A stretch of 64,000 nt of DNA from a virus (Duplodnaviria; Caudoviricetes). Made by a program: the position numbers and the translations under genes. Numbering within the stretch: position 1 is the first letter of the stretch; every line of letters begins with the position of its first letter. The notes beneath the pieces were generated by a model. The model searched no databases. It saw only the letters and a list, made by a program, of their open reading frames with translations, and had not been told where the DNA came from. Where the stretch lies: positions 96,001 to 160,000 of the IMG/VR virus record IMGVR_UViG_3300025121_000014; one strand, written 5' to 3'. Positions 2,698 to 63,293 of the stretch are shown piece by piece.

Positions 2698-2781
2698 TTT
2701 CTAATTTAACATATTTTAGAATAAATACTTATATCTATGAAACAAAAAATTACTAATCAGTAATAGTTCAACTTTGGTTAA

Positions 2782-2791
2782 TTAATATATA
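2782..2791 (+). promoter_or_regulatory. Recurrent TTAATATATA / TTTATATATA motif, putative phage late promoter
   Basis: Found 5-35 nt before starts at 2782, 8804, 11873, 12378, 17233, 25187, 26180, 32630, 34489, 42172, 50270, 53762, 58072; minus-strand copies at 8771, 35198, 39075, 47828. Confidence 0.6.
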
Positions 2792-2815
2792 ATATAAAAA
2801 TAATTATACCTACCA

Positions 2816-6709: not shown

Positions 6710-6712
6710 AAA

Positions 6713-8394: not shown

Positions 8395-8397
8395 AAT

Positions 8398-8712
8398 TTA
8401 TTTTGTTTTTATTAATATGTCTGATTTATCTGCAATATCATATATCGATTCATAAACTGGTAATAATTCTTTCTGTTCTTTTTTTTCTTTCATTTTATTT
8501 AATAATGGAATTAAATCATTTAAAATATTATTACCTAATTTAGCAATATTATTTTTATTTTGTACTAACCGATTATAATATTCAATATTAAATTGTTCTA
8601 AGGTTGTTTCCTTATTAACATATTTATTCCAAATATCTGATACATTAATAGTTAATTTCCAATCATCAGAACCGTAAAAGTCTTCCATTTCATTAAAATG
8701 ATAAATTTTCAT
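8398..8712 (-). CDS. Hypothetical protein (MKIYHFNE leader)
   Basis: ORF preceded by a minus-strand TTAATATATA at 8771-8780. Confidence 0.6.
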   Translation of the reverse strand: MKIYHFNEMEDFYGSDDWKLTINVSDIWNKYVNKETTLEQFNIEYYNRLVQNKNNIAKLGNNILNDLIPLLNKMKEKKEQKELLPVYESIYDIADKSDILIKTK

Positions 8713-8834
8713 TTATTTATTTTTTATTTTTTTGTATTTATTATAAATTATTATGTTGTTTGTCATACTCTATATATTAAATCTTAATTATTAAAATTAT
8801 AATTTAATATATAATAAAAAGTAAATTAAATTAT

Positions 8835-10670
8835 ATGGCAATTGGAACTAAATTATATCCCGTAATCGTTTTAAAAGAATTAGAAAATGATTCAAGTATT
8901 TCTGTAATTAGTGGATTTACCTATATTTATACTAAAACCAATAATAATTTATATTTTAAAAATACTGGTATTACAGAAGCTAGATTCTATACAAGTAATG
9001 AATCTATTATACCAAATATAAATAGTACAAATGATATAGGTACAACTAATTATTCATTTCGAGATTTATATTTAAACGGCAGTATCAAAATACCTAACGG
9101 TCAAACTATATTCAATGTTAATACAACTTATAATAATACATCCGTAGGTCATCTTGCTGGTGGTACAAATACAGGCACTAATAATGTAACTGTTGGTTAT
9201 TCATCTGGTTATAATTTATTAAATAGCGCTAATAATACTTTAATTGGTACTGATGCAGGATATAATCTTACTACTGGTGATGGTAATATATTTTTAGGTT
9301 ATCAAGCTGGTTATCAAGAAACAGGAAATGATAAATTATACATATCTAATTGGAGTGGAAACACAGGACAAACTTTAATTTATGGTGATTTTAGTACTAA
9401 TGAATTAACTATAAATGCAGATGTTGAAATTAGTAACACTATTGATATTGGTGGTGATTTAATAAAGTTTAGTGGATTTGATTTTATAAGATCTGCTAAT
9501 ATATCTACTACAGTTATAGGTATTGAAGCTGCAACTGGATTAACAAGTAGTGGATATAATAATGTAATTATAGGTTATCGTGCAATGCAATCAATAGAAA
9601 GTTGGGATAATTGTACAGCAATAGGTGTTGAGGCAGGAAGATATCAGAGATATCATCATCAAATATTTATTGGTTATCAAGCAGGGTTAGGTGTAGAAGG
9701 AGTTACAACTGCTGATGGTAGTATGGCAATAGGAAATTATGCACTTAAAGTAATAGAAACAGGTTCGAATAATTTAGCCATAGGTCACAGTACTATGTTT
9801 AAATTTACAGACGGGTCTAGTAATACAGCAGTAGGATACAATGCGATATTTAATAATTTAACTGGAAGTTATAATACAGGTTTAGGCCAAGGTGCATTAT
9901 ATCAAAGTTTAGGTAGTAGTAATGTGGCTATTGGTTATTATGCTGGTCAAAATGCACAAAGCGGTGGTGTTTATATAGGTCATAAAGCAGGATTTTATGA
10001 AACAGGATCAAATAAATTATTTATTGCAAATGATAATCATACAAGTGAAGCTATTAGTAGAATAACATCATTAGTTTATGGTGAATTTGATACACCTTTA
10101 TTAAGATTTAATTCAACTGTTGAAATTAGCGGAAATACAATACCTATTTATAACAATTCAACTGATTTAGGTTCTTCGTCATACGGTTGGAGAAATTTAT
10201 ATTTATCTAATGATAGTGGAATATATGTTGGTAGTATTGAAGGAATACGAGTAGGAAGTGGTGAAACCTGGTTAAATCATGAAATTCATATAGAAAACGA
10301 TACTTGGATAACTGGAAGAAATAATTCAGGAACAACAGAAGTAAATATAATAAAAATAAATACAAATGATGAAATAGAATTAGGTGCTACATTTAATGTA
10401 GGAAGTTTAGAAGCAGCCGAAGATAGTGGTGCAGTAACTTTATTTGATATGCCTGTTTCAAGCACACCAACATTAGGTGATGAAATGTCTGCTACTATAA
10501 AAATTGATGGAAATAATATTTTAAAAATTTATGCTGAAGCAGATGGTACTGGTGGTGTTGATACTTATAGAGTAAAATTATTAAATAAAGCAAAATTAGT
10601 TTTACAAGATAGTACAGGAATTGAACACACTTATGAAGCTGATTCTGATGGATCGTTAATAATAAGTTAA
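8835..10670 (+). CDS. Tail-fibre-like protein with Gly-rich beta-roll repeats
   Basis: Many NxAIGxxA / NIFLGYQAG repeats; YDLGSSSYxWRNLY-type module. Confidence 0.65.
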   Translation: MAIGTKLYPVIVLKELENDSSISVISGFTYIYTKTNNNLYFKNTGITEARFYTSNESIIPNINSTNDIGTTNYSFRDLYLNGSIKIPNGQTIFNVNTTYNNTSVGHLAGGTNTGTNNVTVGYSSGYNLLNSANNTLIGTDAGYNLTTGDGNIFLGYQAGYQETGNDKLYISNWSGNTGQTLIYGDFSTNELTINADVEISNTIDIGGDLIKFSGFDFIRSANISTTVIGIEAATGLTSSGYNNVIIGYRAMQSIESWDNCTAIGVEAGRYQRYHHQIFIGYQAGLGVEGVTTADGSMAIGNYALKVIETGSNNLAIGHSTMFKFTDGSSNTAVGYNAIFNNLTGSYNTGLGQGALYQSLGSSNVAIGYYAGQNAQSGGVYIGHKAGFYETGSNKLFIANDNHTSEAISRITSLVYGEFDTPLLRFNSTVEISGNTIPIYNNSTDLGSSSYGWRNLYLSNDSGIYVGSIEGIRVGSGETWLNHEIHIENDTWITGRNNSGTTEVNIIKINTNDEIELGATFNVGSLEAAEDSGAVTLFDMPVSSTPTLGDEMSATIKIDGNNILKIYAEADGTGGVDTYRVKLLNKAKLVLQDSTGIEHTYEADSDGSLIIS

Positions 10671-26788: not shown

Positions 26789-28171
26789 ATGTTAGAATTA
26801 GTAGGAAAATATACAACAGCAAAAATAATGATTGATGAAGTGGAACCAGAAGCTTTATCAATGATACAATCAGTTATAGATAGTCCAGCAAGTGAAGGAT
26901 TACCAGTTGCTATAATGGTCGATTGCCATGTTGGAAAAGGTTCTACAGTTGGTTTCACAATGCCATTAGGTAATATGATTAATCCAAATTGGGTAGGTGT
27001 TGATTTATCATGTGGTATCATAGGTGGGTTTTTTAAATCCATTAAATCGTTTGATTTAGATAAAATAAATAAGAAAATAAGAGAAGAAATCCCATTAGGG
27101 TTTAATATTAATGAAAATTGTATAATAAAAAATTATCCATTAGACGAAGTTCAAATAATGGTAAATAATTTTACAAAATCTTATAATAATAAATTTGATA
27201 CAAATTTTAAAACACCGATAATTAATGATAAATGGTTATTAAATTTAATAAATAAAATTGGGATTGATAATAATAGATTTTATAATAGTTTATCGAGTCT
27301 CGGCGGAGGAAATCATTATATAGAATTGGGAATCAATGAATTAGGTGATTATTTATTAACTGTTCATACAGGTAGTAGAAATTTAGGACAAAAAGTTTGT
27401 ATGTATCATGTTAATCAAGCAAAAACACAAGTAAATATTTCACAAGACGAATATGCTAAAAAATTAGATAATATAATTTTAAATACGTTTGATAAAAAAC
27501 AAATACCTGTTAAAATTCAAGAATTAAAAAAAGAAATGAAAATAGGTATAAATACAGAATACTTACAAGGTGAATATATGTTTAATTATTTAATTGATGC
27601 TTTATTTTGTAATCATTATGCTACATTAAATAGAACTTTAATTCTTAATAAAATTAAAGTTATTTTAGGTGTTAAAAAATTTGATAATGTTGTTAATACA
27701 ATTCATAATTATTTAGATTTTAGCACTGATGATTTTATGATTAGAAAAGGTGCAGTTTCAGGTAAAAAAGATGAACTTGCTATTATTGGACTTTCGATGA
27801 AAGATGGGAATTTATTAGTAAAAGCAAAAGGGAATAAGGACTGGAATCAAAGTTTAAATCATGGTTGCGGGAGAACCATGAGTAGAAGTAAAGCTAAAAC
27901 TATGTTTTCATTAGAACAAATGCAAAAATCTATGAAAGGAATTGTTTGTGACTTGAATAACCATGTGGTTGATGAATCGGTTTTTTGTTATAAAAATGCA
28001 GATTTGATAAAAAGTTTAATGATTGAAAATGCAGATATTATTTATACATTTAAACCATTATTAAACGTAAAGGATATTGGAAAATCAATTTCTTGGAAGG
28101 AAAAGAAAAAAGAAAAAAAGAAAAGAGATTTGGAACGAAAGAACCAAAGAAAAATGAAAAGATGGCATTAG
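26789..28171 (+). CDS. rtcB: RtcB-family RNA ligase
   Basis: DCHVGKG, GVDLSCG, SLGGGNHYIE, VHTGSR, HNY, RKGA, SLNHGCGR motifs. Confidence 0.92.
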   Translation: MLELVGKYTTAKIMIDEVEPEALSMIQSVIDSPASEGLPVAIMVDCHVGKGSTVGFTMPLGNMINPNWVGVDLSCGIIGGFFKSIKSFDLDKINKKIREEIPLGFNINENCIIKNYPLDEVQIMVNNFTKSYNNKFDTNFKTPIINDKWLLNLINKIGIDNNRFYNSLSSLGGGNHYIELGINELGDYLLTVHTGSRNLGQKVCMYHVNQAKTQVNISQDEYAKKLDNIILNTFDKKQIPVKIQELKKEMKIGINTEYLQGEYMFNYLIDALFCNHYATLNRTLILNKIKVILGVKKFDNVVNTIHNYLDFSTDDFMIRKGAVSGKKDELAIIGLSMKDGNLLVKAKGNKDWNQSLNHGCGRTMSRSKAKTMFSLEQMQKSMKGIVCDLNNHVVDESVFCYKNADLIKSLMIENADIIYTFKPLLNVKDIGKSISWKEKKKEKKKRDLERKNQRKMKRWH

Positions 28172-29588: not shown

Positions 29589-29972
29589 TTGATTTATAAA
29601 ATGACTAAAGAAAGATTTGCCGAAATATATTGTAAAAGATTTTGTATAGTAAGTGATTATGTATCATCTACTTATATAGTAGATAGTCTTAATCATATAA
29701 TTATTTTTAAGGGTGTTGATGAAAATGATGAAGTAATAATAGAAACTACTAATACTACGATTAATGATATTATTACAGAATTTTATAAAATACCAAGTGT
29801 TCGTATTTATGGTATTATATCAGCACGTATCTGGGATTGTGAGAAAAGAAAAGTAATTAAAAATATTACTGATTTACCAGATGCTGATATTAAATCACTT
29901 AAAAGAAATCAAAAAAAATTAGAATATAATAGTCAAATATCAGAATTATTACAAAAAGTTAGATATTTATAG
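29589..29972 (+). CDS. Hypothetical protein (ends in TAG, abutting the next ATG in frame)
   Basis: ORF; likely ATG start at 29601. Confidence 0.55.
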   Translation: MIYKMTKERFAEIYCKRFCIVSDYVSSTYIVDSLNHIIIFKGVDENDEVIIETTNTTINDIITEFYKIPSVRIYGIISARIWDCEKRKVIKNITDLPDADIKSLKRNQKKLEYNSQISELLQKVRYL

Positions 29973-30218
29973 ATGAAAGAATATATAATAAATTCTCAGG
30001 AAGATTTTAAGATATTTTTGGATGAAAACTTTCCTCCAAATTTTTTAAGAAATACTATTATAAATGATTATGGATTAACAATAAATTTAGATAAAGAAGA
30101 AACAGATAAAATAGAATTAAAATTAAGGGAACTCTTACATTTTTTTCTTACTAAATTTAATATTGATACAAAATTAACAACAATTAATTGTGTTTATTAT
30201 TTATATAACTTAATTTAA
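29973..30218 (+). CDS. Hypothetical protein
   Basis: 81-aa ORF. Confidence 0.5.
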   Translation: MKEYIINSQEDFKIFLDENFPPNFLRNTIINDYGLTINLDKEETDKIELKLRELLHFFLTKFNIDTKLTTINCVYYLYNLI

Positions 30219-34943: not shown

Positions 34944-35185
34944 ATATTAATGTGTTTCAACGTTTCATAGACTTGACTATTGTCAACGCCTCACCGTCTT
35001 TTTGTTTATACTACGAAATCAGTCCCTGACCCACAGTTTAAAAATATTTTTAAACATTTTTAATGACACTTAACTTGGTTTTCGTTAAATGTTTGACTAT
35101 CAAGTATTTACATACTTGAACCTCAATGATTTTACTTGATCTAGGTTTGTAGATCAAAACCATTAAATCATTTCAAAGAACTTTT
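34905..35185 (-). ncRNA. Putative omega-like RNA from mini-IS A plus flanking guide (boundaries approximate)
   Basis: Three 8-bp hairpins, then a TnpB-3'-like scaffold (GGTCAGGGACTGA..AAACAAAAA..GAGGCGTTG..AGTCTATGAA) and the right end; promoter motif at 35198-35207. Confidence 0.55.
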
Positions 35186-35276
35186 ATTTAATTATTATAT
35201 ATATTAAATAATGAAAGCCAAAAAAGTCAAATTCATCACATAACTAAAGGTTTATGTGTTTTCTTTGATGGCTCAT
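34924..35276 (-). mobile_element. Mini-IS A: ORF-less IS200/IS605-type element (353 bp)
   Basis: TTTAT precedes the left-end hairpin ATGAGCCATCAAAGAAAACACATAAACCTTTAGTTATGTGATGAATTTGAC; right end GAAACACATT..GATGTGTAGTTCAT. Confidence 0.85.
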
Positions 35277-35295
35277 ATAAAAAAAAGTTTTTAAA

Positions 35296-35976
35296 ATGTG
35301 GAGTTATTACGGAAGAAAAAGTAAAGTAGTTAAATATTACCCTAATCCAATACACGACAAAATAATAGAACCTTTTGCAGGAACCGCCGTTTATTCGTTA
35401 TATGAAAATAATTGGGAAAAAGAAGTATTGTTAGTTGATAAATATAATGTTATTGTTGAATTATGGCATTATTTACAACAAGCAACAGCAAAAGATATAT
35501 TATCATTACCTGATATGGAATATCATGATAATGTTGATCAACATACACAATTATCAAAAGAAGAAAAATGGTTAATAGGTTTTAATATAAACGGTGGTTC
35601 ATCTCAACCAAAAAAAACTACTATGAAATATAATGTTTGGAATAATATTAAACCTGTTATTGCAGAAAATCTTTATAAAATTAAACATTGGAAAATTATA
35701 GAAGGTGATTATAGAGATATTAAAAATGAAAAAGCAACCTGGTTTATAGATCCACCTTATCAAACTGGTGGAATTTATTATAGACACAATAATTCTAAAA
35801 TTAATTTTCCAGAATTATCAGATTGGTGTAAAAGTAGAAATGGTCAAATTATTGTTTGTGAAAATACTAAAGCTGATTGGATGGATTTTAAAGCATTAAA
35901 AAAAATGAGAGGTTCTTTACATACAACAACTGAAGCAATTTGGTATCGCGAAAATAATGAAATACTTATTAACTAA
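35296..35976 (+). CDS. DNA adenine methyltransferase (Dam/D12-like)
   Basis: YYGRKSK, EPFAGTA (motif I), IDPPY (motif IV). Confidence 0.88.
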   Translation: MWSYYGRKSKVVKYYPNPIHDKIIEPFAGTAVYSLYENNWEKEVLLVDKYNVIVELWHYLQQATAKDILSLPDMEYHDNVDQHTQLSKEEKWLIGFNINGGSSQPKKTTMKYNVWNNIKPVIAENLYKIKHWKIIEGDYRDIKNEKATWFIDPPYQTGGIYYRHNNSKINFPELSDWCKSRNGQIIVCENTKADWMDFKALKKMRGSLHTTTEAIWYRENNEILIN

Positions 35977-36096: not shown

Positions 36097-36456
36097 ATGG
36101 AAAAATTTATAATTATAACAGCAGATACAAACGATGGTGATTATATTACTGAAAGATACAAAATTACTGATGAACAAATTGCAAAAATAATTCCAGTTGT
36201 AGAAGCAATAAAAAAAATTAAATTTGAACCTTATATCGTAACAAAACCTGGATATTGGTCACATAAACAAAACAGTAATTACCCTACTGGTGAAATGCAT
36301 AGAAGTGATTTAGGTGAAAAATCTGCAAAAGATTTATACGGGCATCTTGAAGGATTTGAATTATTTAATAGTTTTTGTCCTTTGGGAGAATATGGTATTC
36401 ATACTATAGTATCAGTTGAAATTATTCAAGTTGCAGAAACAATTAATTTATTATAA
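36097..36456 (+). CDS. Hypothetical protein
   Basis: 119-aa ORF. Confidence 0.6.
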   Translation: MEKFIIITADTNDGDYITERYKITDEQIAKIIPVVEAIKKIKFEPYIVTKPGYWSHKQNSNYPTGEMHRSDLGEKSAKDLYGHLEGFELFNSFCPLGEYGIHTIVSVEIIQVAETINLL

Positions 36457-36874
36457 AATGAAAAATTTAAAAGAAATATTAAGAGAAAAAACAATTAAAT
36501 ATTACAATAGTAAATCTTGTAATAGAAATATGGAAAATTTTCATATGGGTGATTTATTTTATATATTATTTAATGATGTAAATAATTGGCCAGACGTATC
36601 ATATTGTTGTGGTTGTGAAGATTGTAATTGTGATGATAGTGAAAAGATAAAAGAAGAATTAGATATGGAAAATAATGAAATATTAGAAATAAATGATAAT
36701 TTCATAACTATTGCTTGTGGTGGTGATTGGCAAAATCCTTTAACTTTAACAATTAAAGCTATTGATGATAAATTAACAGTAGTCAATATCAAAAATGGTT
36801 ATGATGATGGAAAATATTGGAATAAATCGGAACTTTTTTTAAAAGATATTGGATTAGATATAACAACAATTTAA
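36416..36874 (+). CDS. Hypothetical Cys-rich protein
   Basis: CCGCEDCNC, IACGGDWQNP; likely ATG start at 36458. Confidence 0.55.
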   Translation: MKLFKLQKQLIYYKMKNLKEILREKTIKYYNSKSCNRNMENFHMGDLFYILFNDVNNWPDVSYCCGCEDCNCDDSEKIKEELDMENNEILEINDNFITIACGGDWQNPLTLTIKAIDDKLTVVNIKNGYDDGKYWNKSELFLKDIGLDITTI

Positions 36875-36891: not shown

Positions 36892-37170
36892 ATGAAAAAA
36901 AATTTAACATTAAAAAAACTCTTGAAACTAGGTTTTAAAGAGAATGTAGTTACAAAAGAAGAATCTGGAGATAATGAATATAGATATTATTCATTAGAAT
37001 TAAATGATGAAAACGATGATTGTCTTATTAGTGATTCAGATGATGAAATAAAAGATGGTTTATACACAGTTAATCTATTTAATTCGGAAATGGGTTATTG
37101 TTACAATACAAAACAAATAAAAAAGTTATATAAAGCATTAAAAGGTGTAAAATTAAAAAAAAATAAATAG
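36892..37170 (+). CDS. Hypothetical protein
   Basis: 92-aa ORF. Confidence 0.55.
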   Translation: MKKNLTLKKLLKLGFKENVVTKEESGDNEYRYYSLELNDENDDCLISDSDDEIKDGLYTVNLFNSEMGYCYNTKQIKKLYKALKGVKLKKNK

Positions 37171-39881: not shown

Positions 39882-40331
39882 ATGAAAACAATGGAAATAA
39901 TAAAAACAGAAAAAATAGAATCTAATAATGTAAATGAATTAGTTAAAGCATTCAACAATTTTGTTGAAGAATTAAAAGAAACGATGGAAAGTAAAACATA
40001 TCAAGGAGAACCAATATATCGTTTTACAACAGAACCAAAAGAAATAAATATTTCTAATTTAAAAGAATTGGGTATTAGAGATATTAAAAGATTTAAAAGA
40101 TATTTAAATAAAGCAATTTTATATAAATCAGAAAAATCAATAAATCGTTTATTTAACTTAGTATATAAAAGATTTTTAAAATTAGAAAATATACCAAGAT
40201 TTGTTTGTGATAAGCATGAAATAATACAAAAATTAAGAAAAGAATGGAAGATTCAACAAAAAATTGCTAATCAAATGTTAAAACAATACAAATTAGAAAA
40301 AGGTAATTTTTATAAAACAATAAAAGTATAA
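39882..40331 (+). CDS. Hypothetical basic protein
   Basis: 149-aa ORF. Confidence 0.55.
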   Translation: MKTMEIIKTEKIESNNVNELVKAFNNFVEELKETMESKTYQGEPIYRFTTEPKEINISNLKELGIRDIKRFKRYLNKAILYKSEKSINRLFNLVYKRFLKLENIPRFVCDKHEIIQKLRKEWKIQQKIANQMLKQYKLEKGNFYKTIKV

Positions 40332-40333
40332 TA

Positions 40334-40375
40334 TTTAAAATGCAAGGATATTTAAAAATATCCTTGCATTTTAAA
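40334..40375. repeat. Perfect 20-bp inverted repeat, possibly a terminator, overlapping the tRNA promoter
   Basis: TTTAAAATGCAAGGATATTT-AA-AAATATCCTTGCATTTTAAA. Confidence 0.85.
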
Positions 40376-40405
40376 AAATTTTATTTATCTTTGTAAATGA
40401 AAAAT

Positions 40406-40480
40406 GGCCTCATAGTTCTAATTGTGCAGAATAGCGGGTTCTAACCCCGAAGGTTGTAGGTTCGAATCCTACTGAGGTCA
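40406..40480 (+). tRNA. tRNA with anticodon CUA (putative amber suppressor); CCA not encoded
   Basis: Acceptor GGCCTCA/TGAGGTC, D stem GTTC/GAAT, anticodon arm GCGGG-TTCTAAC-CCCGA, variable AGGTT, T arm GTAGG-TTCGAAT-CCTAC. Confidence 0.8.
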
Positions 40481-40568
40481 CAAATTATAATTTAAATCGA
40501 CTAATAAAATACAAAAATTTGAATATCATCATCCGTATCGTTATATTAATTTTTAAATATTTAAATAA

Positions 40569-41459
40569 ATGACAGCATCAAAATTATTATTTGATTTTAC
40601 AAATAAATTTCAAAATAAATATCGATTTAATCCGGTTTTTAATACTTTTGTAGATTTTATGTATAGATTAGACGATTATAATTATTTAAAATTGAATTTT
40701 CCTAACGTATATAAAAATTTCTTTAAAAATAATAAAAATTGTGAAATTAAAAACGGAGATAATGGTTATTTATTATTTGATAATGAAAAACAAAAAATTA
40801 AATTAGGTAAATTTTTATCAAGTTTACGACAAGATTCAACTAAACGCAAACTTGATAAAAGTGAAATATATTCAATAGAAAATATAGTAAATTCGTATAA
40901 ATCTTGGGCAAATATAAATAATAAATTTAAATTTGTAGAATTAAAAGGTCGTGAAATTGTTACCAAAGGATATAATACACGATATTATTATATAAAAATG
41001 GGAACATTGCTTAGATCTTGTATGAATAATAAAAAATTATTTATAGGTTTATATAAACGAAATAAGAAAAAAATATCTTTATTGACATTGCAAGATAATA
41101 ACGGCAAAATTCACACAAGAGCATTAGTATGGAAATTAGATAGACCATTTAATACAATATTAATGGATCGTGTTTATTATATAAGTGATTATATGATAGA
41201 TATGTTTCAAGAATATGCTAAAGAAAACGGTTGGTTATATAGATCAAATTATAATACAGGAATTACTAATAAAGAATATACTAATTATAATAATAAAGAG
41301 TTATTACAAGTACAATTAAATACTTGGGGAAATATTTTTCATCCATATATGGATACTATGATTTATAGAACTGGTTTAGATGGCATTTTTACAAATAAGA
41401 AAATATTTAATACTAAATGGAAAATGACACGCACAGATGGTTTAATGACACGAATATGA
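40569..41459 (+). CDS. Phage hypothetical protein (SCM / RALVW / MDRVY / PYMDT motifs)
   Basis: Motif string familiar from phage hypotheticals; function unknown. Confidence 0.55.
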   Translation: MTASKLLFDFTNKFQNKYRFNPVFNTFVDFMYRLDDYNYLKLNFPNVYKNFFKNNKNCEIKNGDNGYLLFDNEKQKIKLGKFLSSLRQDSTKRKLDKSEIYSIENIVNSYKSWANINNKFKFVELKGREIVTKGYNTRYYYIKMGTLLRSCMNNKKLFIGLYKRNKKKISLLTLQDNNGKIHTRALVWKLDRPFNTILMDRVYYISDYMIDMFQEYAKENGWLYRSNYNTGITNKEYTNYNNKELLQVQLNTWGNIFHPYMDTMIYRTGLDGIFTNKKIFNTKWKMTRTDGLMTRI

Positions 41460-45569: not shown

Positions 45570-46538
45570 ATGACACAAACTAAAGCATTTATTGATATTT
45601 ATACAAAAGACTATCCAGTAGGAAAAGTTTTGAAATGTAATATGTGGTTAGAAGGAGAATATACTGATAATATGGTATGTGAATTATTATCTAATGGATT
45701 AAGTGATTATGTGAATGGTATAAAAAAATTCAGAAATAAATATATTGTAGCTGGTTTTAAAGTTAATTTTACTATGTATTTTAAAAATAAAGATGAAAAT
45801 AATAGTTTTAATGAAATTATAATAATGGACGAAAGAGATTATAAACAGAACAATACTATATTATTAAATAATAATCGATTAAATAATAATCGATTAAATA
45901 ACATATCAATTACTAAAGTTGATGGTCGTGTTATAGTTGAAGGATCTGAAAATTCACAAAAAGTAGAACTTACATCCGATTTAAAAATAGCTACTGATGG
46001 TGGTTCGACCATAAATATTAATGATAAAACAACTGAAAAAAAGAAATTTGTAAAAGCTAATTTAAAAAATCTTAGACTATATTTATACAATAATGAAGAA
46101 TTAACCGAATTAAAACATAAATTAGAAATTGAATTTTTTAAAAGAAAATATAAATTAAGTGATGATGAATTTACATATTATTTAGAAAATAGAAATATTA
46201 TAAAACCCGAAAATATTAAAAAATCATTTAAAAGAAATGGTGGAGATGCATTTAAAATTAAAAAAAATAGAATTAGAAAAAAATTATTCCCACTTGATAA
46301 AAATGATAAAATAATTGATACTACTATAAAAAATGATAGTGAAAATATTGTTGAAAAAAAAAGTCCAATAATCCCTGAATTATCTCCTGATGCGATTAAA
46401 ATTGCATCTGAAATTAAACCAAAATCAAGAATTAAAATTATTAAACCTAAAACAACAAAATATAAAAAAATGAATGGAAAAACAACACCAGTATCAAAAA
46501 CAACAATTAATGAACTACCAACTACACTAAAGATGTAG
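45570..46538 (+). CDS. Hypothetical protein, paralog 3; 3' end altered by the IS insertion
   Basis: TKAFIDIYTKDYPVGKVLKCNMW; the empty site restores ..KTTINKTIKIENPLKN*. Confidence 0.6.
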   Translation: MTQTKAFIDIYTKDYPVGKVLKCNMWLEGEYTDNMVCELLSNGLSDYVNGIKKFRNKYIVAGFKVNFTMYFKNKDENNSFNEIIIMDERDYKQNNTILLNNNRLNNNRLNNISITKVDGRVIVEGSENSQKVELTSDLKIATDGGSTININDKTTEKKKFVKANLKNLRLYLYNNEELTELKHKLEIEFFKRKYKLSDDEFTYYLENRNIIKPENIKKSFKRNGGDAFKIKKNRIRKKLFPLDKNDKIIDTTIKNDSENIVEKKSPIIPELSPDAIKIASEIKPKSRIKIIKPKTTKYKKMNGKTTPVSKTTINELPTTLKM

Positions 46539-47969
46539 TGGTTTCTGAATCGAACTGATTCATCTCTTTAAGCACTTCATTGCCGTTGCCTAATTTCTTA
46601 GGTCTTATTTTTGCTCCATGCTCGTAATCAGACGTTCCATCTGATATATTTTTTCTATATCCTTCATTGAGGATATTGATTGCTGCATTTACATCTCTGT
46701 CTTGTTTTTCACCACACTTACAATCCCAAGTTCGGTCTTTTAATGTTAAACCATTATTGATCCACCCGCACTTACTACAAGTCTTACTTGAAGGAAAAAA
46801 TCTATCTATGTGTATGACTTGTTTATCATTCCATTCAGCCTTGTATTCAAGGATATTAATGAAAGTTGACCAAGCAACATCTAAAATTGATTTGTTTAAT
46901 CCTGATTTAGCAGACTGACCATTTGGAAGATATTTACCATTTTCATCTTGTTTTGATTTACACCTATGAGACATACCTTTAACATTTAAGTCTTCAAGGT
47001 AAATCACATCAAATTGTTTTATTAAATCTAAAGCGGTTTTATGTATTAAATCCATTCTTGAATTACTTATCTTTTCATGTATCCTTGCAACTTTAATTCT
47101 TTGCTTTTCATAACGAATTGATTGTTTTACTTTTCTTGATAGAGATTGTTGATTTAATTTTAATTGATGTTGATAGTGTTTTAAAAATCTATGGTTCTTG
47201 ATTTTCGTTCCATTAGATAACACTAAAAAATCTTTTAATCCTAAATCTATTCCTACTGATAATCCACTTTTATTCATTGATATGTATTCCATTTCAGTTA
47301 AAATAGAAACAAAATACTTACCAGTAGGTGTTTTTGATATAACACAGTGTTTTATAACACCATTTATTTTACGTTCCATAATCATTTCAATACCATCTTT
47401 TCTAAACTTTGGTATGTAAAGTTTATTTTTCTTTACAGATACAAATTGTGGTATGGTAAATGAATTTTTTGATTTTCTTGACTTAAATTTTGGAAATTTT
47501 GTCCTCTTTTTAAAAAATCCATCATATGCAGTATCTAAACAATTTAAAGAAAATTGAAGTGTCTGACTATTAATTTCTTTCAACCATTTTTTATCTTCAA
47601 GTTTTTTAATTTGAGTTAATTCTTTTGATTGGTCATAATAATTTAAAGTTTTCTTATTGTTTAAATATTCATTTTTTCTTTGATTTAAAAAATAATTATA
47701 CACAAACCTCACTGAACCAAAATGTTTATTCAATAACACTTGTTGTTGTTCTGTTGGTTCTAATCTAAACTTATATGTATATCTAATTATTTTCATTTTT
47801 TATGTCAAAGTTTTTTCTTAACATAAGTATATATTAAAAGAAAAATGTCTGTTTTTCCATTTTTGAATTATTTATTAAAACTTTTAACTATTTTCAAAAT
47901 AATTAAAACCCGTTTTGGTCAAATTCATCCATTAAACTAAAGATTTAACGGTTTTCTTTGACGGTCAGT
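46510..47969 (-). mobile_element. IS200/IS605-family (tnpB-only, IS1341-like) element T1
   Basis: TTTAT (plus-strand ATAAA 47970-74), left-end hairpin 47918-47969, right end GAAACCACTACATCTTTAGTGTAGTTGGTAGTTCAT. Confidence 0.88.
46522..47796 (-). CDS. tnpB: RNA-guided endonuclease TnpB, apparently intact
   Basis: YTYKFRLEPT HTH, GIDLG, YLEDL, CSKC..CKC zinc finger, DRDVNAAINI. Confidence 0.93.
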   Translation of the reverse strand: MKIIRYTYKFRLEPTEQQQVLLNKHFGSVRFVYNYFLNQRKNEYLNNKKTLNYYDQSKELTQIKKLEDKKWLKEINSQTLQFSLNCLDTAYDGFFKKRTKFPKFKSRKSKNSFTIPQFVSVKKNKLYIPKFRKDGIEMIMERKINGVIKHCVISKTPTGKYFVSILTEMEYISMNKSGLSVGIDLGLKDFLVLSNGTKIKNHRFLKHYQHQLKLNQQSLSRKVKQSIRYEKQRIKVARIHEKISNSRMDLIHKTALDLIKQFDVIYLEDLNVKGMSHRCKSKQDENGKYLPNGQSAKSGLNKSILDVAWSTFINILEYKAEWNDKQVIHIDRFFPSSKTCSKCGWINNGLTLKDRTWDCKCGEKQDRDVNAAINILNEGYRKNISDGTSDYEHGAKIRPKKLGNGNEVLKEMNQFDSETTTSLV

Positions 47970-49203: not shown

Positions 49204-49848
49204 TTAAATATTTTTTTTTATTTTTTTTATTTTTTTTAATCTTTCAAATAAAATATTAGGATTTTCATATAGTTCAAAAACTTCTTTAAGTTGATTTTCA
49301 TCTTTAATATCATATGTATGTTGCCACACAAGACCTTCTAAATGTATATCTGTTTTATCCCTTTCAGTTTGAACTACATCAATATAAAATGATTTAGGTG
49401 TAAATGGAAAATTCCTAATATATTGACGACTTGATAATGTTTTTCCATTTTTTAACTTAATACCACCACCTTGGCTATTAGAACATATACCATTATTATC
49501 TTTAAATATAATAGCATTTATATAATAAGCTTTACCATCTTTACCTTCTTTAAATACAGCACTATTTCTATTATTTTGATATACATGTGTTTTATGTACT
49601 GTATAATTAATATCCCATTCATCATCTTCGCCTGTTAATGGTGACAATGTATTTTGTAAACATAATGTTTTTACTGCTTGGGATATTATAGAAGCCGTAT
49701 AAGGAGTTGAACCACCACTTTGTCCACTATTACCAAACTTATCTATTAATGCTAAAATTTCGTCTTTAAACGGTAAAATAATTGAATCTTGTTCTGTATT
49801 TTCAATAATTTCGAATTCCCTTATTGCTTTATTTTTTGTATAGTTCAT
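49204..49848 (-). CDS. Phage hypothetical protein
   Basis: FGNSGQSGGS, LSPLTGEDDEW motifs. Confidence 0.6.
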   Translation of the reverse strand: MNYTKNKAIREFEIIENTEQDSIILPFKDEILALIDKFGNSGQSGGSTPYTASIISQAVKTLCLQNTLSPLTGEDDEWDINYTVHKTHVYQNNRNSAVFKEGKDGKAYYINAIIFKDNNGICSNSQGGGIKLKNGKTLSSRQYIRNFPFTPKSFYIDVVQTERDKTDIHLEGLVWQHTYDIKDENQLKEVFELYENPNILFERLKKIKKIKKNI

Positions 49849-50682: not shown

Positions 50683-51207
50683 ATGAAGTTAACAGATAAG
50701 CAAATAAAGGAAACATATATAAATGTATTAACTAGTACAAAAGTTAATGATATAATTAAGAAAAATAGCCAGGGACTTAAACTTGCGCTAAATGAACATA
50801 TATGGTTTGAAAAACAATTTGGTGTGAGAAAAGCAAATCTTAATTTTGCTATGACAACAGGTGAAATAGATGAATATGCCAAATGTAAAATGGATGTTCA
50901 TTACTTTGCAAATAAATATTGCCACATTAAAAGAGAAGACGGTACAATTGGACCAATGCAACTAAGAGATTACCAGAGAGATATTATAGATTTATATGTT
51001 AATAATAGATATTCTATATTAATGACTAGTAGACAATTAGGTAAGTGCAACTCCTTGGTAACCAGATTGTTAGTAAAATTTGACAATGGTGATGAATATG
51101 AAATTACTATGGGAGAATTATATTATACTTACATTCAACAAGAAAGAAAACTAACAATCATAGAAAAAATTAAACTTTTTCTATATAAAGCACTATCTAA
51201 ACTATAA
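50683..51207 (+). CDS. terL: Terminase large subunit N-fragment plus 53-aa N-intein (Cys1 at 51046)
   Basis: LRDYQ adenine motif, SRQLGK then CNSLVTRLLVKFDNG..ITMGELY. Confidence 0.85.
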   Translation: MKLTDKQIKETYINVLTSTKVNDIIKKNSQGLKLALNEHIWFEKQFGVRKANLNFAMTTGEIDEYAKCKMDVHYFANKYCHIKREDGTIGPMQLRDYQRDIIDLYVNNRYSILMTSRQLGKCNSLVTRLLVKFDNGDEYEITMGELYYTYIQQERKLTIIEKIKLFLYKALSKL

Positions 51208-52827
51208 TATTTGATTATAAATATATTTTAAATTACCAGAATTATATATTCTATAAATTTTTCTTTCTAACATAATTTGATGTTCAGTTTTGTTAACATC
51301 ATAACCTTCTTTAATTAATTTATCTTTTCTGAAATTAAATCTATGGTGTCTAATTTGGTCAATAATATAATAATAATTAGGTGATGTTTTATGTATAAAA
51401 TCAAATCCTAAAACTTCATATAATTTTCCATTAGAATGACTTCTATCTGCATATGTAGTTATATTATCAAATTTATAATTTCTAATAAAATACTTAAATA
51501 ATTTACTAGCACATCCTATTACATTTGTATTAAGTTTATTACAAAACCTTAACATTTCATATTGTCCTTCGGTTTTTGAAGATGAATTCATAGATTTTCT
51601 TAATTTTCCAAAAGTCATTAATGAAATTAATTCATTTTCATAAAATAAACCTAATTTAATTTTACTTCCTACAAAACCTTGAATATGATTTTCATCTAGA
51701 AATTTTCTAACTAATTTATTATCAATTATTTCTTTAACTTCTGTTTTTCTAGCGTATATTTTGTTTGGTGTTCTACCTAACTTATTCAATATCATTGATT
51801 TAACTATATCTTGTTTATATACCCAATCATCTTCATATATATGAATTAATTGAATATTTTTTTTATCACATAATTCAGTTTTATCTAAATGATAATTATT
51901 CGGTCTATATAATTCATTATGCCAATAAACACCATTAAATTCAAATGCTAATTTTAAATCAGGGATATAAATATCTAATTCTTTTCCATCTAATATTTTT
52001 CTATCATTTGTTATTATTAAATTATTATAATTTTCTTTTATAAAATCTAATAATTTATTTTCTTTGTCAGAACCAGGATCATTAATAGGATTACATATTG
52101 TACATAATGTAGTATTAGTTTCTAATCTATTATAAAAAATTGTTTTAGGTATTTTACTTATATGATTATTACATTGATATATATAAGTATAATCTTCATA
52201 ATCAATATCAATAATATTGTTATTTTTATATTTTTGGATTAATTTATTTTTTTTATTAATTGTTTTTTTTTCTTGGGTAGATTTTAATTTTGATATATTA
52301 TCAACACCATATAATTTTAAATTAGTTTCTCTATATTTTTCTAAATTATTATAATTTTCATCACCATATTTTTCTTTTTTAGTAACTAACGATTGTTTAT
52401 GATTATTATAATTTTCATCACCATGTTTTTCTTTTTTAGTTTTTTTAATTTTTTCAATATGTTTTGTTGTTTTTGATGGGTGAGTCGTACCATATTTATC
52501 TAAACATGTTTTTATATATTTTTTACTATTTGTATAATTTTCATCACCATATCGTTCTTTTTTAGTTTTTTTCATTTTAATATATTTACATTTATTACAA
52601 TAATATAAGCCATCATCATATGTATTATTAATATATGTTCTATACTCCATATTTTTAATATCTCCACATATATCACATTTAACATCAATTTTAATTGGAC
52701 TGCCTTTAATTAAATCTTTTATATTTATATTTATAGTATCTCCTTTTTTGGCATCATAATTTTTATTTTTATAAAATGTAATATTTCTAGTACTTATATT
52801 CATTTTTACTTGTTCAGTTATAATCAT
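51202..52827 (-). CDS. Hef/Vsr-like free-standing homing endonuclease with KYG repeats and a GNAT-like C-domain
   Basis: ELDIYIPDLKLAFEFNGVYWH, IHIYEDDW, YADRSHSNG; start moved from 52896 (inside the IS end) to MIITEQ. Confidence 0.75.
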   Translation of the reverse strand: MIITEQVKMNISTRNITFYKNKNYDAKKGDTININIKDLIKGSPIKIDVKCDICGDIKNMEYRTYINNTYDDGLYYCNKCKYIKMKKTKKERYGDENYTNSKKYIKTCLDKYGTTHPSKTTKHIEKIKKTKKEKHGDENYNNHKQSLVTKKEKYGDENYNNLEKYRETNLKLYGVDNISKLKSTQEKKTINKKNKLIQKYKNNNIIDIDYEDYTYIYQCNNHISKIPKTIFYNRLETNTTLCTICNPINDPGSDKENKLLDFIKENYNNLIITNDRKILDGKELDIYIPDLKLAFEFNGVYWHNELYRPNNYHLDKTELCDKKNIQLIHIYEDDWVYKQDIVKSMILNKLGRTPNKIYARKTEVKEIIDNKLVRKFLDENHIQGFVGSKIKLGLFYENELISLMTFGKLRKSMNSSSKTEGQYEMLRFCNKLNTNVIGCASKLFKYFIRNYKFDNITTYADRSHSNGKLYEVLGFDFIHKTSPNYYYIIDQIRHHRFNFRKDKLIKEGYDVNKTEHQIMLERKIYRIYNSGNLKYIYNQIL

Positions 52828-52884
52828 ATTATTAGTTTTTATTTTATATATAAAAAGGTCAAAGTGTAAAATATCATTATTTAT

Positions 52885-53736
52885 ATGACCCGTCAAAGAA
52901 AATCGTTAAATCTTTAGTTTAAAGGATGAATTTGACATACCAAAATTAAAATTTACTGATATAGATTTACACAGAGAATTTAAAGGTGATATAAAAACTA
53001 TAACTATTTCAAAAACAACAACAAATAAATATTATATAAGTATTTTAGTCGATAACAAAAAAGAATTGCCTGAAAAACAACCAATTAAATTAGAAACAAC
53101 CGTTGGTGTCGATTTGGGAATTAAAGATTTTGTTATCACTTCAGATGGAAAGAAATTCAAGAACCAAGATTTCTTTAAATCTGCTTTAAAGAAACTAAGA
53201 GTTGAACAGCGTTCCCTTAGTAGAAAACAAAAAGGATCAAACCATTATTTAAATCAAAAATTAAAGGTTTCATTATTTCACGAACACATTAAAAACCAAA
53301 GAGAAGATTACTTACATAAAATAACTAAATACCTTGTAGATAATTATGATACAATTTGTATAGAAAATCTTGGTGTTTCTAATATGATGAAAAACAATAA
53401 GTTAAGTCGTGCTATAAGTGATATGGGTTGGTTTAAATTTAAATCATTTCTTGAATATAAATGTGAATGGTATGGAAAGAATTTAAGTGTGATTGGTAGA
53501 TTTGATCCTTCATCAAAAACATGTTCTGTTTGTGGAAAAATAAATAAAGAATTAACATTAAAAGACAGAAACTGGAAATGTAATTACTGTGGAACAGAAC
53601 ATGATAGAGATATAAATGCTGCAATTAATATAAGAAATTTTGGGTTGAGGAACCAACCTAGCGTTACACAAAGTGAATGGTTGCATTGTGCTTGTAGCGT
53701 AGAAACACACAAATCTTCAGTTTGTGCGTAGTTCAT
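52885..53736 (+). mobile_element. IS200/IS605-type element T2 with 5'-deleted tnpB (852 bp)
   Basis: TTTAT 52880-84, left-end hairpin, right end GAAACACACAAATCTTCAGTTTGTGCGTAGTTCAT. Confidence 0.88.
52937..53731 (+). pseudogene. tnpB: N-terminally truncated TnpB
   Basis: Frame IPKLKF..KYYISILV..GVDLG..IENL..CSVC..CNYC..DRDINAAINI begins right after the left end, with no HTH. Confidence 0.85.
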
Positions 53737-59659: not shown

Positions 59660-61276
59660 TTATTTTAAATTCTTTAAATATTTAAATTTTAAATTACCAG
59701 AATTATAAATTCTATAAATTTTTCTTTCTAACATAATTTGATGTTCTGATTTATTAGCATCATAACCTTCTTTAATTAAAACATCTTTTCTAAATCCAAA
59801 CCTGTGATATCTAATACCATCAACGACATAATAATAATTTGGTTTAGATGTATGTGAATATATGAATCCTAAATATTCATATAATTTTCCAGTTGAATGG
59901 CTTCTATCTGCATACGTAGTTATTTCTTTAAATTCATAATTTCTTATAAAATATTTAAATAATTTTGAAGCACCACCTATTACATTAGTATTTAATTTAT
60001 TACAAAATCTTAACATTTCGAACTGCTTTTCTTTTGAAACTGAATTCATCATTTTTCTTAATCCACCAAAAGTCATTAAACTAACTAATTCATCTTTATA
60101 AAATAATCCTATTTTAATAGATGATCCCATAAATCCTTGAATATGATTTTCAGCCAAAAAGTTTCTGACTAATTTATTATCTGTTATTTCTTTTACTTCT
60201 GTTTTTCTTGCATATATTTTATTTGATGTTTTACCTAACTTATTTAAAATCATTGATTTAACTATATCTTGTTTATAAATCCAATCATCTTCATAAATGT
60301 GTATTAATTGAATTTTTTTTTCATCACATAAATCAGATTTTATTTTATGATAATCGTTTGATTTATATAATTCATTATGCCAATAAACTCCATTAAATTC
60401 AAATGCTAATTTTAAATCAGGTAAATAAATATCTAATTCATAAGGATTTATTATATTCCTATCATTTGTAATAATTTCTTCTTTATAGTTTTCTTTTATA
60501 AAATCTGATATTTTTATTTCAGAATCAGATTTAAAATTGAAACCTATTGAATTACACTTAGTACATAACGTAGAATTTAAAATTAATCGATTTTTTAATA
60601 ATCCTTTATTTATTTTAAAAATTTGGTTACAATTATTACATTTAATAAAATAATCCGGATTATTATAATTTATAACTATAATATTATATTTATCTTTATA
60701 GTATTTGATGGAATTTTTATTTTTAATATTTTGTATTTTTTTATATAATTCTTGTTGTATTTCTTTAGATTTTAATCTATATTCAACTCCATATTTTTCT
60801 AAATTTGTTATTTTAATTTTATCCCATACTTCTTCTGTTTCTAAACCATATTTCTTTCCGTATTTACTTAAATTAGTATTTTGAAGTTTTTTAATTATTG
60901 TATTTGAATGCATAGGGTGATCAACACCATATTTTTTTAATAATGTATTTTTAGATTTTTCTTTTATTTTATCTAATTGAAAAATATTTTCAACATTATA
61001 TTTATCATTTAATCTTCTAATACATTTATCATTAGAACATTTTTTAGAGCAACAATATTCTTCTGTTAAATTATTAGTATTTTTGATATATTGGAAATAT
61101 TTTAATTTTTTTTCTAATCCACATATATCACATTTTACTTTAATTTCAACATGACTATTTTTTGATAAATCTGTTGGTTTTACCAATGAATATTTTAATA
61201 AAACATCATACCCTAATTGTTCATAATGTTTTTTTAATTTTCTATTATTAATTTTTACTTCTTTTGTAATAATCAT
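59660..61276 (-). CDS. Second Hef/Vsr-like homing endonuclease
   Basis: ELDIYLPDLKLAFEFNGVYWH; C-terminal half highly similar to 51202-52827. Confidence 0.75.
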   Translation of the reverse strand: MIITKEVKINNRKLKKHYEQLGYDVLLKYSLVKPTDLSKNSHVEIKVKCDICGLEKKLKYFQYIKNTNNLTEEYCCSKKCSNDKCIRRLNDKYNVENIFQLDKIKEKSKNTLLKKYGVDHPMHSNTIIKKLQNTNLSKYGKKYGLETEEVWDKIKITNLEKYGVEYRLKSKEIQQELYKKIQNIKNKNSIKYYKDKYNIIVINYNNPDYFIKCNNCNQIFKINKGLLKNRLILNSTLCTKCNSIGFNFKSDSEIKISDFIKENYKEEIITNDRNIINPYELDIYLPDLKLAFEFNGVYWHNELYKSNDYHKIKSDLCDEKKIQLIHIYEDDWIYKQDIVKSMILNKLGKTSNKIYARKTEVKEITDNKLVRNFLAENHIQGFMGSSIKIGLFYKDELVSLMTFGGLRKMMNSVSKEKQFEMLRFCNKLNTNVIGGASKLFKYFIRNYEFKEITTYADRSHSTGKLYEYLGFIYSHTSKPNYYYVVDGIRYHRFGFRKDVLIKEGYDANKSEHQIMLERKIYRIYNSGNLKFKYLKNLK

Positions 61277-61280
61277 AATA

Positions 61281-62213
61281 TTATATTTTTATTTTAAATT
61301 CTGTTAATGGAAATTCTTGTGGTTTATAAATTTTTTCTCTTCTTGATATATATTGATTATATATAATATTTTTATAAGATGGATGATATTGATCAACTAT
61401 ATCAAACACAACTAACTTTTCTTTATCTGCATGTAATCTTAATCCACGACCAATTGATTGTCTAATTATTTGATCTGATTTAAAACTGTCAGCAAAAACA
61501 ACATTCATTAAATTTTTAACATTTATACCTGTTGAAAATGTTCCAAATGACGCAATTAATATTTTTGGTTTATTATCCGATATCTCCATTATTTTTTTAA
61601 TTTTTTCTCTTTTATCTTTATTAGTACCACCGTCAATATAATAAAAGAATTTATCTGTAATATTATCTCTAAGATATTCATATAATTCTGTACCATATAT
61701 TATATTATGAAATAATATTAATGAATTGCTTGTAAACTTATCTACTAATTTTTTGAAGAACATTTTCCTTCTTAATGATTTTTGAGCAAATTCTTTTTCT
61801 AATAAATATGCTTCTTTTCCTTGACCTCTTTTTTTAATAGCATACATTTTTTGTGAGAAATCTTCTTCATCATGATTTAATATCATAGCATTAATTTTTA
61901 CCTTAGATACTAGACCTTTATCCATTAATTCTTTAGCTTTAACAGTCATTAATTTAGGTCCCATTAAAGATTGAATAGTAAGAATTTCGGCTGAACTATT
62001 CGGTGGATATGTTCCAGATAACCCCAATCTATAAATAGCATTACCAAATGTTTTAGATAGTATTGTATCTAAACTTTTTGCTTTTGCTACGTGGCAATTA
62101 CTAACACATATTCCATTAGCAAAATAATTATTATTTATATCATTTCCTTCTTTTATTCTTATATTATAAACGTCACCAGTATAATCTATTTTTTTAATTG
62201 ATTTAATTTTCAT
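61281..62213 (-). CDS. uvsW: 39-aa C-intein plus UvsW-like SF2 helicase C-fragment
   Basis: MKIKSIKKI..VYNI..NYFANGICVSN|CH; LGLSGT, QSIGRGLR. Confidence 0.85.
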   Translation of the reverse strand: MKIKSIKKIDYTGDVYNIRIKEGNDINNNYFANGICVSNCHVAKAKSLDTILSKTFGNAIYRLGLSGTYPPNSSAEILTIQSLMGPKLMTVKAKELMDKGLVSKVKINAMILNHDEEDFSQKMYAIKKRGQGKEAYLLEKEFAQKSLRRKMFFKKLVDKFTSNSLILFHNIIYGTELYEYLRDNITDKFFYYIDGGTNKDKREKIKKIMEISDNKPKILIASFGTFSTGINVKNLMNVVFADSFKSDQIIRQSIGRGLRLHADKEKLVVFDIVDQYHPSYKNIIYNQYISRREKIYKPQEFPLTEFKIKI

Positions 62214-62237
62214 TATAATTTTTTATCATTTTTATTT

Positions 62238-63293
62238 TTACATATTAAAATCTATAATATCATCATTTTCTAATAAATTGTCTACTCTTTTCCATATACC
62301 ATTTTTTAATAAAACTTTATGATTTCCTGTAATATAGATAAATTCACCATTTTCTAATTCTAATTCATACATATTTTCAAATTTAGATAAGTTTTTGTAA
62401 ACATAATCAACCTGTTTTATTTCTTTTTCTTTTGTTAATTCATTAAATGTCCATACTTCATCTCCTATATTAATATTTTTTATCATTTCTTTATTACCAG
62501 ATCCCATTTCTATTAAAGTATTAGGGTGTAAACATTCATCTGTGACAACAATATCAAATTTTTTGAAATAATTGATATCATATTTATCCGATGATAAACT
62601 TTGATAAGTTCCAATATAAATATTAGGTTCTTCACCATCTCTTACTTTTCTTGGCTTATCAGAAAATACTTCTTCTATTTTCAAATTAAATGGATTTGTT
62701 TGTTCTTTATTAAATCCTAAATTATAATCTAATATTTCATCGTAAAATTGAGTTACTAAACTCATTCTAGGTACAATTAATAGAACTTTAATATCAGGAT
62801 TGATAAACTTCATTATGTAAAATATAAACGTTGAAAATATAAGAGATTTTCCACCAGCAGTTGCTACTTCAATTAAACCAAATTTATATTTCAACATTTG
62901 AAATACAGCATCTATTTGATGTTCATAAGGCATAAATAATCCTAATGGATTATCTTTAGTTGGAGGAACTCTATAATTTTTAAAAAATTCTTCAACAAAT
63001 TCTTTAACATCTTCTAATTTGATATTTAAATCAAATGGAAATGATGTCTTATCGACATCAAATTTATAATCATGATTCCGACAACATTTATATACTTCTT
63101 TCCAAAGACCGTATCTTATAATACCATTATGAAAATGATCAATAGAACCATCCCAAACTCCTAATTTATGTCGTTTTTTAAAATGATATCCTTCTACTTT
63201 TCTAGTAAGATGTAATTTTAATTGATGATATTCTTCATGAGTAGATTCTTTAATTATTATCTTATTTTTGTCGTCTGTTATTACTAATTTCAT
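62238..63293 (-). CDS. uvsW: UvsW-like SF2 helicase N-fragment plus 98-aa N-intein (Cys1 at 62534)
   Basis: YEHQ, ATAGGKS Walker A, VVTDE|CLHPNT..ITGNHKV. Confidence 0.85.
   Translation of the reverse strand: MKLVITDDKNKIIIKESTHEEYHQLKLHLTRKVEGYHFKKRHKLGVWDGSIDHFHNGIIRYGLWKEVYKCCRNHDYKFDVDKTSFPFDLNIKLEDVKEFVEEFFKNYRVPPTKDNPLGLFMPYEHQIDAVFQMLKYKFGLIEVATAGGKSLIFSTFIFYIMKFINPDIKVLLIVPRMSLVTQFYDEILDYNLGFNKEQTNPFNLKIEEVFSDKPRKVRDGEEPNIYIGTYQSLSSDKYDINYFKKFDIVVTDECLHPNTLIEMGSGNKEMIKNINIGDEVWTFNELTKEKEIKQVDYVYKNLSKFENMYELELENGEFIYITGNHKVLLKNGIWKRVDNLLENDDIIDFNM

Follow-up and report, generated by a model that had tools for sequence, protein, structure and literature searches.

What can a tRNA that reads the amber codon do in a phage which apparently keeps the standard genetic code? 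The question is raised by a single locus, at positions 40406–40480 (+) of a 64-kb stretch of viral DNA (64,000 nucleotides, hereafter the window), where a tRNA gene with the anticodon CUA had been noticed. The carrier is a huge (at least 233 kb) T4-like phage of groundwater. A contig of 232,944 bp is on record for its RtcB, and proteins encoded in the window recur in Rifle-type groundwater metagenomes. The GC content of the window is about 24%. Virion and fibre-like proteins are encoded in its first part (1–23281), RtcB itself (460 aa, Pfam RtcB, 3.5e-49) at 26789–28171 (+), and a T4-type terminase with intein parts is also present in the window. Along public contigs the survey was extended from ~18.8 kb before the window to ~18.9 kb beyond it, so that ~102 kb were covered.

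Some features of this DNA are mentioned here in their own right. A full TnpB with HTH_OrfB_IS605, OrfB_IS605 and TNB domains is encoded at 46522–47796 (−) and a second copy, truncated at the N-terminus, at 53066–53731 (+); both genes end in TAG. The UvsW-type helicase at 61281–63293 (−) consists of two adjacent ORFs, the first ending with a Hint/intein-splicing part and TAA and the second containing Helicase_C; the gene is thus either interrupted by an intein or split. A Tad3-family match, a protein of 564 aa whose C-terminal domain belongs to the Mom family, and two DUF7487 proteins, which occupy 49204–49848 (−), 51202–52896 (−) and 59660–61276 (−), are candidates for anti-defence or DNA-modification functions. 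About 10–19 kb past the window end (positions 1–9059 of locus L223) there is a run of sugar-nucleotide genes for a DegT aminotransferase, several epimerases/dehydratases, a dTDP-sugar isomerase, an RmlD-like reductase and a UDP-GlcNAc 2-epimerase, followed by two small PspC-domain genes. Such a glycan-precursor module is large for a phage. Finally, 352 nt at ~34944–35295 are free of ORFs and coincide with the end of a 156-kb contig in one assembly, which suggests a repeat or mobile element; the fragmentary gene of a D12 methyltransferase (35296–35976) comes directly after this stretch.

That the locus is a genuine tRNA gene with CUA in its only canonical register was confirmed by ARAGORN and by the Rfam family RF00005. 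The only tRNA called by ARAGORN in the whole 64-kb window was located at 40406–40481 (+), anticodon cta, and the RF00005 covariance model aligned with 40406–40480 end to end (model positions 1–71 of 71) with 55.6 bits, which is nearly twice the gathering score of 29. According to the Rfam alignment all four stems are intact. The acceptor stem has seven pairs, including G2.U71, the D arm is composed of a 4-pair stem and a 10-nt loop, the anticodon stem is made of four Watson-Crick pairs and a G27.A43 mismatch, while the T arm is perfect and closes the T loop GGTTCGAATCC. The anticodon loop of 7 nt, UUCUAAC, puts CUA at positions 34–36, and with its variable loop of 5 nt and discriminator A73 the tRNA belongs to class I. 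The full cloverleaf, the sizes of the anticodon and variable loops and the register of the anticodon, all claimed in the original prediction, were confirmed. The Arg(UCU) register, which had been named there as the alternative able to refute it, was favoured by neither ARAGORN nor Rfam.

The same alignment revealed deviations that had escaped the earlier description. Apart from the mismatch G27.A43, they concern the D loop, where U replaces A at position 14 and G at position 18; among the other positions engaged in conserved tertiary interactions, U8, G19, U33 and the T loop are present. With A14 and G18 missing, folding or charging of the tRNA could be impaired. The minimum-free-energy fold is nevertheless the cloverleaf, with a modest fold z-score of −1.95. 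CCA is not encoded, and the next bases are CAA. As to the sequence itself, 251 bases spanning the gene do not differ between four assemblies, each from another groundwater sample, and no other letters were met at this place in the contigs of four public runs; the anticodon CUA is therefore not an assembly artefact. In the ~102 kb surveyed (the window and flanking loci) it is the only tRNA registered by ARAGORN.

The label “Pyl”, which ARAGORN assigned to the locus, is merely its default name for CUA. tRNA-Pyl has a compact architecture with a 3-nt variable loop, a small D loop and a 6-pair anticodon stem. The tRNA described here shares with it only the anticodon, and tRNA-Pyl was rejected because the cloverleaf is an ordinary one, in which the variable loop has 5 nt, the D loop 10 nt and the T loop is standard. 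No pyl genes were noticed among the proteins scanned.

Inspection of the surroundings suggests that the gene may be expressed on its own. A terminator-like hairpin of 19 pairs with a T-rich tail, found by a scan for terminator-like sites, lies at 40334–40375 (+), where it closes the upstream gene (39882–40331) and sets the tRNA apart from upstream transcription; two terminator-like sites were counted around the tRNA versus 0.2 expected. It is followed by the box TATCTTTG at 40386–40393 (+), which by motif match is a candidate promoter of the TAnnTTTG type (Bacteroidota-like −7 element) and is separated from the tRNA 5′ end by 12 nt. The original prediction had credited the tRNA with a promoter of its own. 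In favour of this claim are the box itself and similar boxes, TA(T/C)CTTTG, situated 27–64 nt before four start codons (26789, 28407, 29310 and 33059), whereas the exact 8-mer was found in the window 10 times against 5.55 expected, which is not a significant enrichment. The promoter is thus plausible, as is the status of the tRNA gene as an independent unit, for which the upstream hairpin and the candidate box argue.

Downstream, at 40569–41459 (+), there is a gene for a 296-aa protein assigned to no Pfam family. Since no terminator-like site separates the two genes, their co-transcription is possible. The protein is a member of a large family that is common in big low-GC phages (1,824 representatives at E≤0.001) and has invariant motifs including S-C-M and M-D-R-x-Y. 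In IMG/VR loci genes of this family are often located a few kb from tRNA clusters, and 19 of 75 tRNAs there are Gln-UUG. In the ten small genes around the tRNA no Pfam families were detected, PTH2 included, and no gene with TAG at codon 3 is situated near it.

Throughout the window Shine-Dalgarno-like 4-mers precede only 4 of 73 genes, and leaders are A-rich. Boxes of the TAnnTTTG type at −7 together with translation independent of Shine-Dalgarno sequences are typical of Bacteroidota. The phage may propagate in a host of this phylum, with which both the type of the promoter box and the A-rich leaders would be in line. The TAG-recoded crAss-like and Lak phages known so far also have their hosts in this phylum (bioRxiv 10.1101/2021.08.26.457843).

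Three patterns derived from the tRNA did not find it in IMG/VR, and the pattern of its D arm was registered in JGI metagenomes only in the phage's own sample. Neither megablast of 10 kb against GenBank phages nor a search of IMG/VR with the 816-aa neighbour and the terminase retrieved relatives. A syntenic relative was found in other public runs (Logan), with genes for 193 aa and 146 aa, an array of the 296-aa gene in four paralogous copies, an oppositely oriented gene for 194 aa and a gene for 817 aa. Logan contigs with such synteny come from ERR10503160, ERR10503163, ERR10503189, ERR10503195 and SRR31444214, and gaps of 115–180 nt flank their genes for 146 aa and 220 aa. In 79 IMG/VR loci with the 296-aa family there were no suppressors among 75 tRNAs and no signal of TAG recoding.

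Matches to tRNAs of GenBank phages were mixed (tRNA-Asp, Trp, Arg, Gln and Lys). With 73% identity, the body of the tRNA resembles a tRNA-Lys(UUU) that is widespread among Patescibacteria and with which it shares the acceptor stem except pair 2-71, the mismatch G27.A43, the T arm and A73. Its identity to tRNA-Arg(GCG) of Patescibacteria is 72%, and to tRNA-Gln(UUG) of large low-GC phages 69%, with the D loop (TAATTG..GCA), the CGGG/CCCG anticodon stem and A73 in common. A copy of that tRNA-Lys(UUU) was also seen on a 1172-nt contig of another organism, which in two groundwater runs matched 40449–40482. Its variable loop, T arm and 3′ acceptor strand coincide with those of our tRNA with 2 mismatches, and more than 120 genomes, most of them from Patescibacteria, have the same anticodon arm. 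In E. coli, tRNAs with CUA are typically charged by LysRS or GlnRS, which are in a mutual trade-off and are keyed on U35 (PMC1483225), and the precedent for the amino acid at TAG of phages is Gln (bioRxiv 10.1101/2021.08.26.457843). Since both synthetases key on U35, Lys or Gln is most likely the amino acid that would be inserted.

If such a tRNA is active, the use of TAG in the genome should be considered. The phage was called apparently standard-code in the original prediction, with no in-frame TAG in long genes and several genes ending in TAG. Both statements on TAG are correct for the window, where 74 ORFs terminate with TAA (55), TAG (12) and TGA (7), so that TAG accounts for 16% of stops, is commoner than TGA and is not depleted; one tandem TAG-TAG was found at 8048–8053. 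A greedy ORF map covered 0.923 of the bases when code 11 was applied and 0.921 when TAG was counted as a sense codon. That the code is standard is true of the window but not strictly of the genome, as an in-frame TAG is present just outside the window in a near-identical strain. Roughly every sixth gene still has TAG as its real stop, so this is not a code-15 phage: reading TAG as sense brings no gain in coding coverage of the window, and 12 of 74 ORFs terminate with it.

Every place in the window where translation might continue across TAG was explained otherwise or left unclaimed. In the pair 29589–29972 and 29973–30218, as in 36892–37170 and the frame that follows it, the second frame has its own ATG right after TAG; a TAG-bridged frame at 36416–36874 is made superfluous by a plain ATG at 36458, and nothing requires the TAG-bridged 5′ extensions at 20984 and 24625. 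Behind the TAG of RtcB 58 in-frame codons remain open without a start (to 28348), potentially for a hydrophobic segment followed by a charged tail of helical appearance. A similar tail was met in one relative only, whose RtcB likewise has 460 aa and is separated from the next gene by just 136 nt. Because its RtcB is equal in length and its spacer is too short, the extension is not claimed and is probably due to chance. Efficient suppression would lengthen 12 genes of the window, fuse 29589 with 29973 and 36892 with 37180, and add 59 residues to RtcB. Since TAG stops are still in use and such tails and fusions would otherwise arise, suppression, if it takes place, should be partial, weak or time-limited.

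The in-frame TAG that breaks the standard code was found ahead of the window at a distance of ~2.7 kb, which places it ~43 kb from the tRNA, in a region read from a 156,681-bp ENA contig (L018) of a strain ~99% identical to the window. A frame of 318 codons (L018 8997–9953) within the fibre/virion module consists there of ATG, 12 codons, TAG at codon 14 and 304 open codons. No ATG, GTG or TTG occurs in frame after this TAG, and the stretch of 1 kb has neither a called gene nor a code-11 ORF of 55 aa or more. It is placed between genes for proteins of 2036 aa and 1460 aa, and its ATG stands 15 nt after the upstream stop, behind an A-rich leader usual for this genome. An identical sequence is present in a second sample. 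At E≤1e-5 the product finds 48 homologues, which are composed of “YIY...FNGT” blade repeats and at most 41% identical to it; its N-terminal 25 residues align with none of them. AlphaFold models it as a beta-propeller (pLDDT 85, pTM 0.86) in which residues 1–11 are disordered and the first strand starts from residue 15, directly past the amber codon; a fold search with this model gave only generic beta-propellers (BamB, WD40). No match to the protein was obtained in JGI metagenomes. With the codon usage of this phage a random nonsense mutation would produce TAG only 17–19% of the time. The base 3′ of the TAG is T, which in E. coli favours termination over suppression.

In its sequence the beta-propeller gene is thus intact except for one codon, and this is the codon read by the sole known tRNA of the phage. 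Its full-length product should be formed only if UAG at codon 14 is read through. In the ~102 kb surveyed it is the one gene that needs TAG read-through. In the same module a DUF285/Laminin_G_3 fibre-like giant gene differs between the strains by an indel of repeat units (1–2697 of the window versus L018 10001–14383), being 1460 aa in one and at least 1504 aa in the other with flanks ~99% identical. This region may be a variable host-range region.

Based on these data we suppose, with moderate confidence, that the phage has a working amber suppressor and is in a state of minimal or incipient TAG recoding. In the ~102 kb a suppressor tRNA coexists with a code-11-compatible genome containing few in-frame stops, which is the combination by which incipient or pre-emergent recoding is recognised. 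The tRNA would be transcribed alone, behind the terminator, from a promoter of the host TAnnTTTG type. It would then be trimmed and supplied with CCA enzymatically, as none is encoded, and charged by a host synthetase, most likely with Lys or Gln. The charged tRNA would read UAG in competition with release factor 1, and the amount of the beta-propeller protein would depend on the level of the charged suppressor. Charging, suppression and use of the promoter are what we infer here, as is the nature of the amber codon, which may be an adaptive gate or a tolerated mutation. The original prediction had listed regulated amber read-through and a pre-recoding state as separate options. Both gained support from the gene that is interrupted by TAG at codon 14 and lacks a second start, and both turned out to describe one finding. 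Against the supposition of a working suppressor with incipient recoding speaks the single client in ~102 kb, located ~43 kb away, which could be a dispensable gene with a recent nonsense mutation. The undepleted TAG stops, the D loop with U14 and U18, the absence of the tRNA from IMG/VR and from the 79 loci, and the T after the TAG of the client count against it too, as do homologues of the client that do not align at the N-terminus.

A bolder version, which we regard as tentative and rather doubtful, is that a deliberate switch of one codon, made up of the tRNA and of the amber at codon 14, licenses, times or doses one virion-associated beta-propeller. The client would in this case be co-transcribed with the giant fibre gene, and suppression would be weak enough to spare the TAG stops of the phage itself. 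If true, a suppressor tRNA would serve as a gene-specific regulator rather than as a code changer, a use so far undescribed.

The opposite possibility, unlikely in our view but to be taken seriously, is that the suppressor works while the amber of the client is an unrelated recent loss-of-function mutation. The role of the tRNA would then be general, either pre-emergent or consisting in read-through of host UAG codons with damage to host or defence proteins. A single interrupted gene in ~102 kb and the ordinary use of TAG as a stop are compatible with this explanation. Suppressors with no trace of reassignment are known, and read-through of host proteins has been suggested as an anti-defence measure (Yutin 2021, PMC7886860). 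It leaves to coincidence, however, that the interrupting codon is exactly the one read by the tRNA, given how seldom a random nonsense mutation yields TAG. The 304 codons past it show no damage, give a good fold and do not vary between two samples, and retention of a pseudogene inside a tightly packed fibre module would be unusual.

It is improbable that the locus is a decaying, non-functional pseudo-tRNA, or a former sense tRNA with a mutated anticodon and no decoding role. Such an origin would account for U14, U18, G27.A43 and the fold z-score of −1.95, and pattern searches in IMG/VR and JGI metagenomes found no relatives with the same tRNA. These features have to be set against the Rfam score, nearly double the threshold, and the preservation of four stems and of the T loop. 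The gene also has its own setting with a terminator-like hairpin and a candidate promoter, is the sole tRNA found in a very large genome and is accompanied by a matching amber gene.

Still less credit can be given to the assumption that the genome is substantially TAG-recoded in the remaining ~130 kb, and that the window represents its standard-code part, as in crAss-like phages in which only late or lysis genes are recoded. The genome measures at least 233 kb, of which the survey took in under one half, and recoding is regional in known recoded phages (PMC7886860; bioRxiv 10.1101/2021.08.26.457843). Nevertheless, 102 kb with a large virion/fibre module, a terminase and many small genes hold only one in-frame TAG, and TAG is a frequent true stop, including the tandem at 8048–8053.

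The remaining proposals are that the tRNA serves against anticodon nucleases of the host, as a decoy or a spare part acting together with the RtcB ligase of the phage, or that it is an Arg(UCU) reader in a shifted register. tRNA-Lys is a classic target of anticodon nucleases, and phage tRNAs evading these nucleases keep a sense anticodon and replace the cleaved host tRNA. Despite the RtcB gene 12 kb upstream, the 72–73% identity of the body to tRNA-Lys(UUU) and tRNA-Arg of Patescibacteria and the string TTCTAA in the loop, as in Arg(UCU) loops, both are very improbable: CUA reads no sense codon and can replace no sense-codon reader, nothing ties RtcB to this tRNA specifically, tRNA repair and maturation explain RtcB well enough, so that the decoy of the original prediction found no support, and ARAGORN and Rfam both put CUA rather than UCU at 34–36.

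What is known of stop-codon recoding in phages comes mostly from the crAss-like, Lak and related lineages of the gut, and from genomes in which it is already extensive. Here we deal with a T4-like huge phage of an aquifer, in which the single tRNA is a suppressor and, in ~102 kb, one late gene contains an amber codon. If a working suppressor is accepted, the phage would stand at the very start of recoding or at its stable minimum, and would do so in another group of phages and another habitat. A single tRNA and a single codon make up a testable pair, with which one may ask whether acquisition of a suppressor comes before recoding and whether single ambers can be used as regulators. In “standard-code” phages that have a CUA tRNA it is worth searching for uncalled genes hidden behind one TAG, as in the 1-kb hole of gene calling described here. 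The state as such is known from the literature; the earlier interpretation is partly supported and has become more precise through a concrete client gene.

Comparison with known systems helps to place this phage. An ordinary elongator tRNA body with a CUA anticodon is also characteristic of E. coli supE and supF and of psu1 of T4. They arose in the laboratory or sporadically, by anticodon mutation in a sense tRNA gene present in duplicate, whereas no sense-reading sister copy accompanies our tRNA in the DNA examined. Work of Ivanova (2014) is reportedly among the sources on TAG-recoded phages. Suppressor tRNAs with CUA are known from such code-15 phages, including crAss-like, Lak and others (PMC7886860; bioRxiv 10.1101/2021.08.26.457843; PMC9523058), and recoding has been linked to low GC and late genes (bioRxiv 10.1101/2021.08.26.457843). 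With them our phage shares a class I CUA tRNA, low GC, Bacteroidota-like expression signals and an in-frame TAG in a late gene of the virion module. Unlike them, it has one gene with in-frame TAG in ~102 kb, uses TAG for 16% of stops and shows no gain in coding density with TAG as sense; unlike the gut crAss-like and Lak phages, it is T4-like, huge and comes from groundwater. The tRNA of crAss cr56_1 annotated as “tRNA-Gln” is in fact a CUA tRNA, and the identity of our tRNA to the crAss suppressor is only ~75%.

Where a phage has a suppressor but few recoded genes or none, the state has been termed “pre-emergence” (PMC7886860) or “incipient code change” (bioRxiv 10.1101/2021.08.26.457843). 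OKSC01000115 and OFRY01000050 are examples of the former (Yutin 2021, PMC7886860), and among Agate phages one with the standard code has been described that acquired a TGA suppressor, “potentially preceding code change” (Borges 2021, bioRxiv 10.1101/2021.08.26.457843). Pre-emergent cases sit beside recoded sister genomes, while none was found here among the 79 IMG/VR loci. Even so, they provide the best match to the phage studied: the suppressor is present, the genome still fits the standard code, and stops inside genes are few at most.
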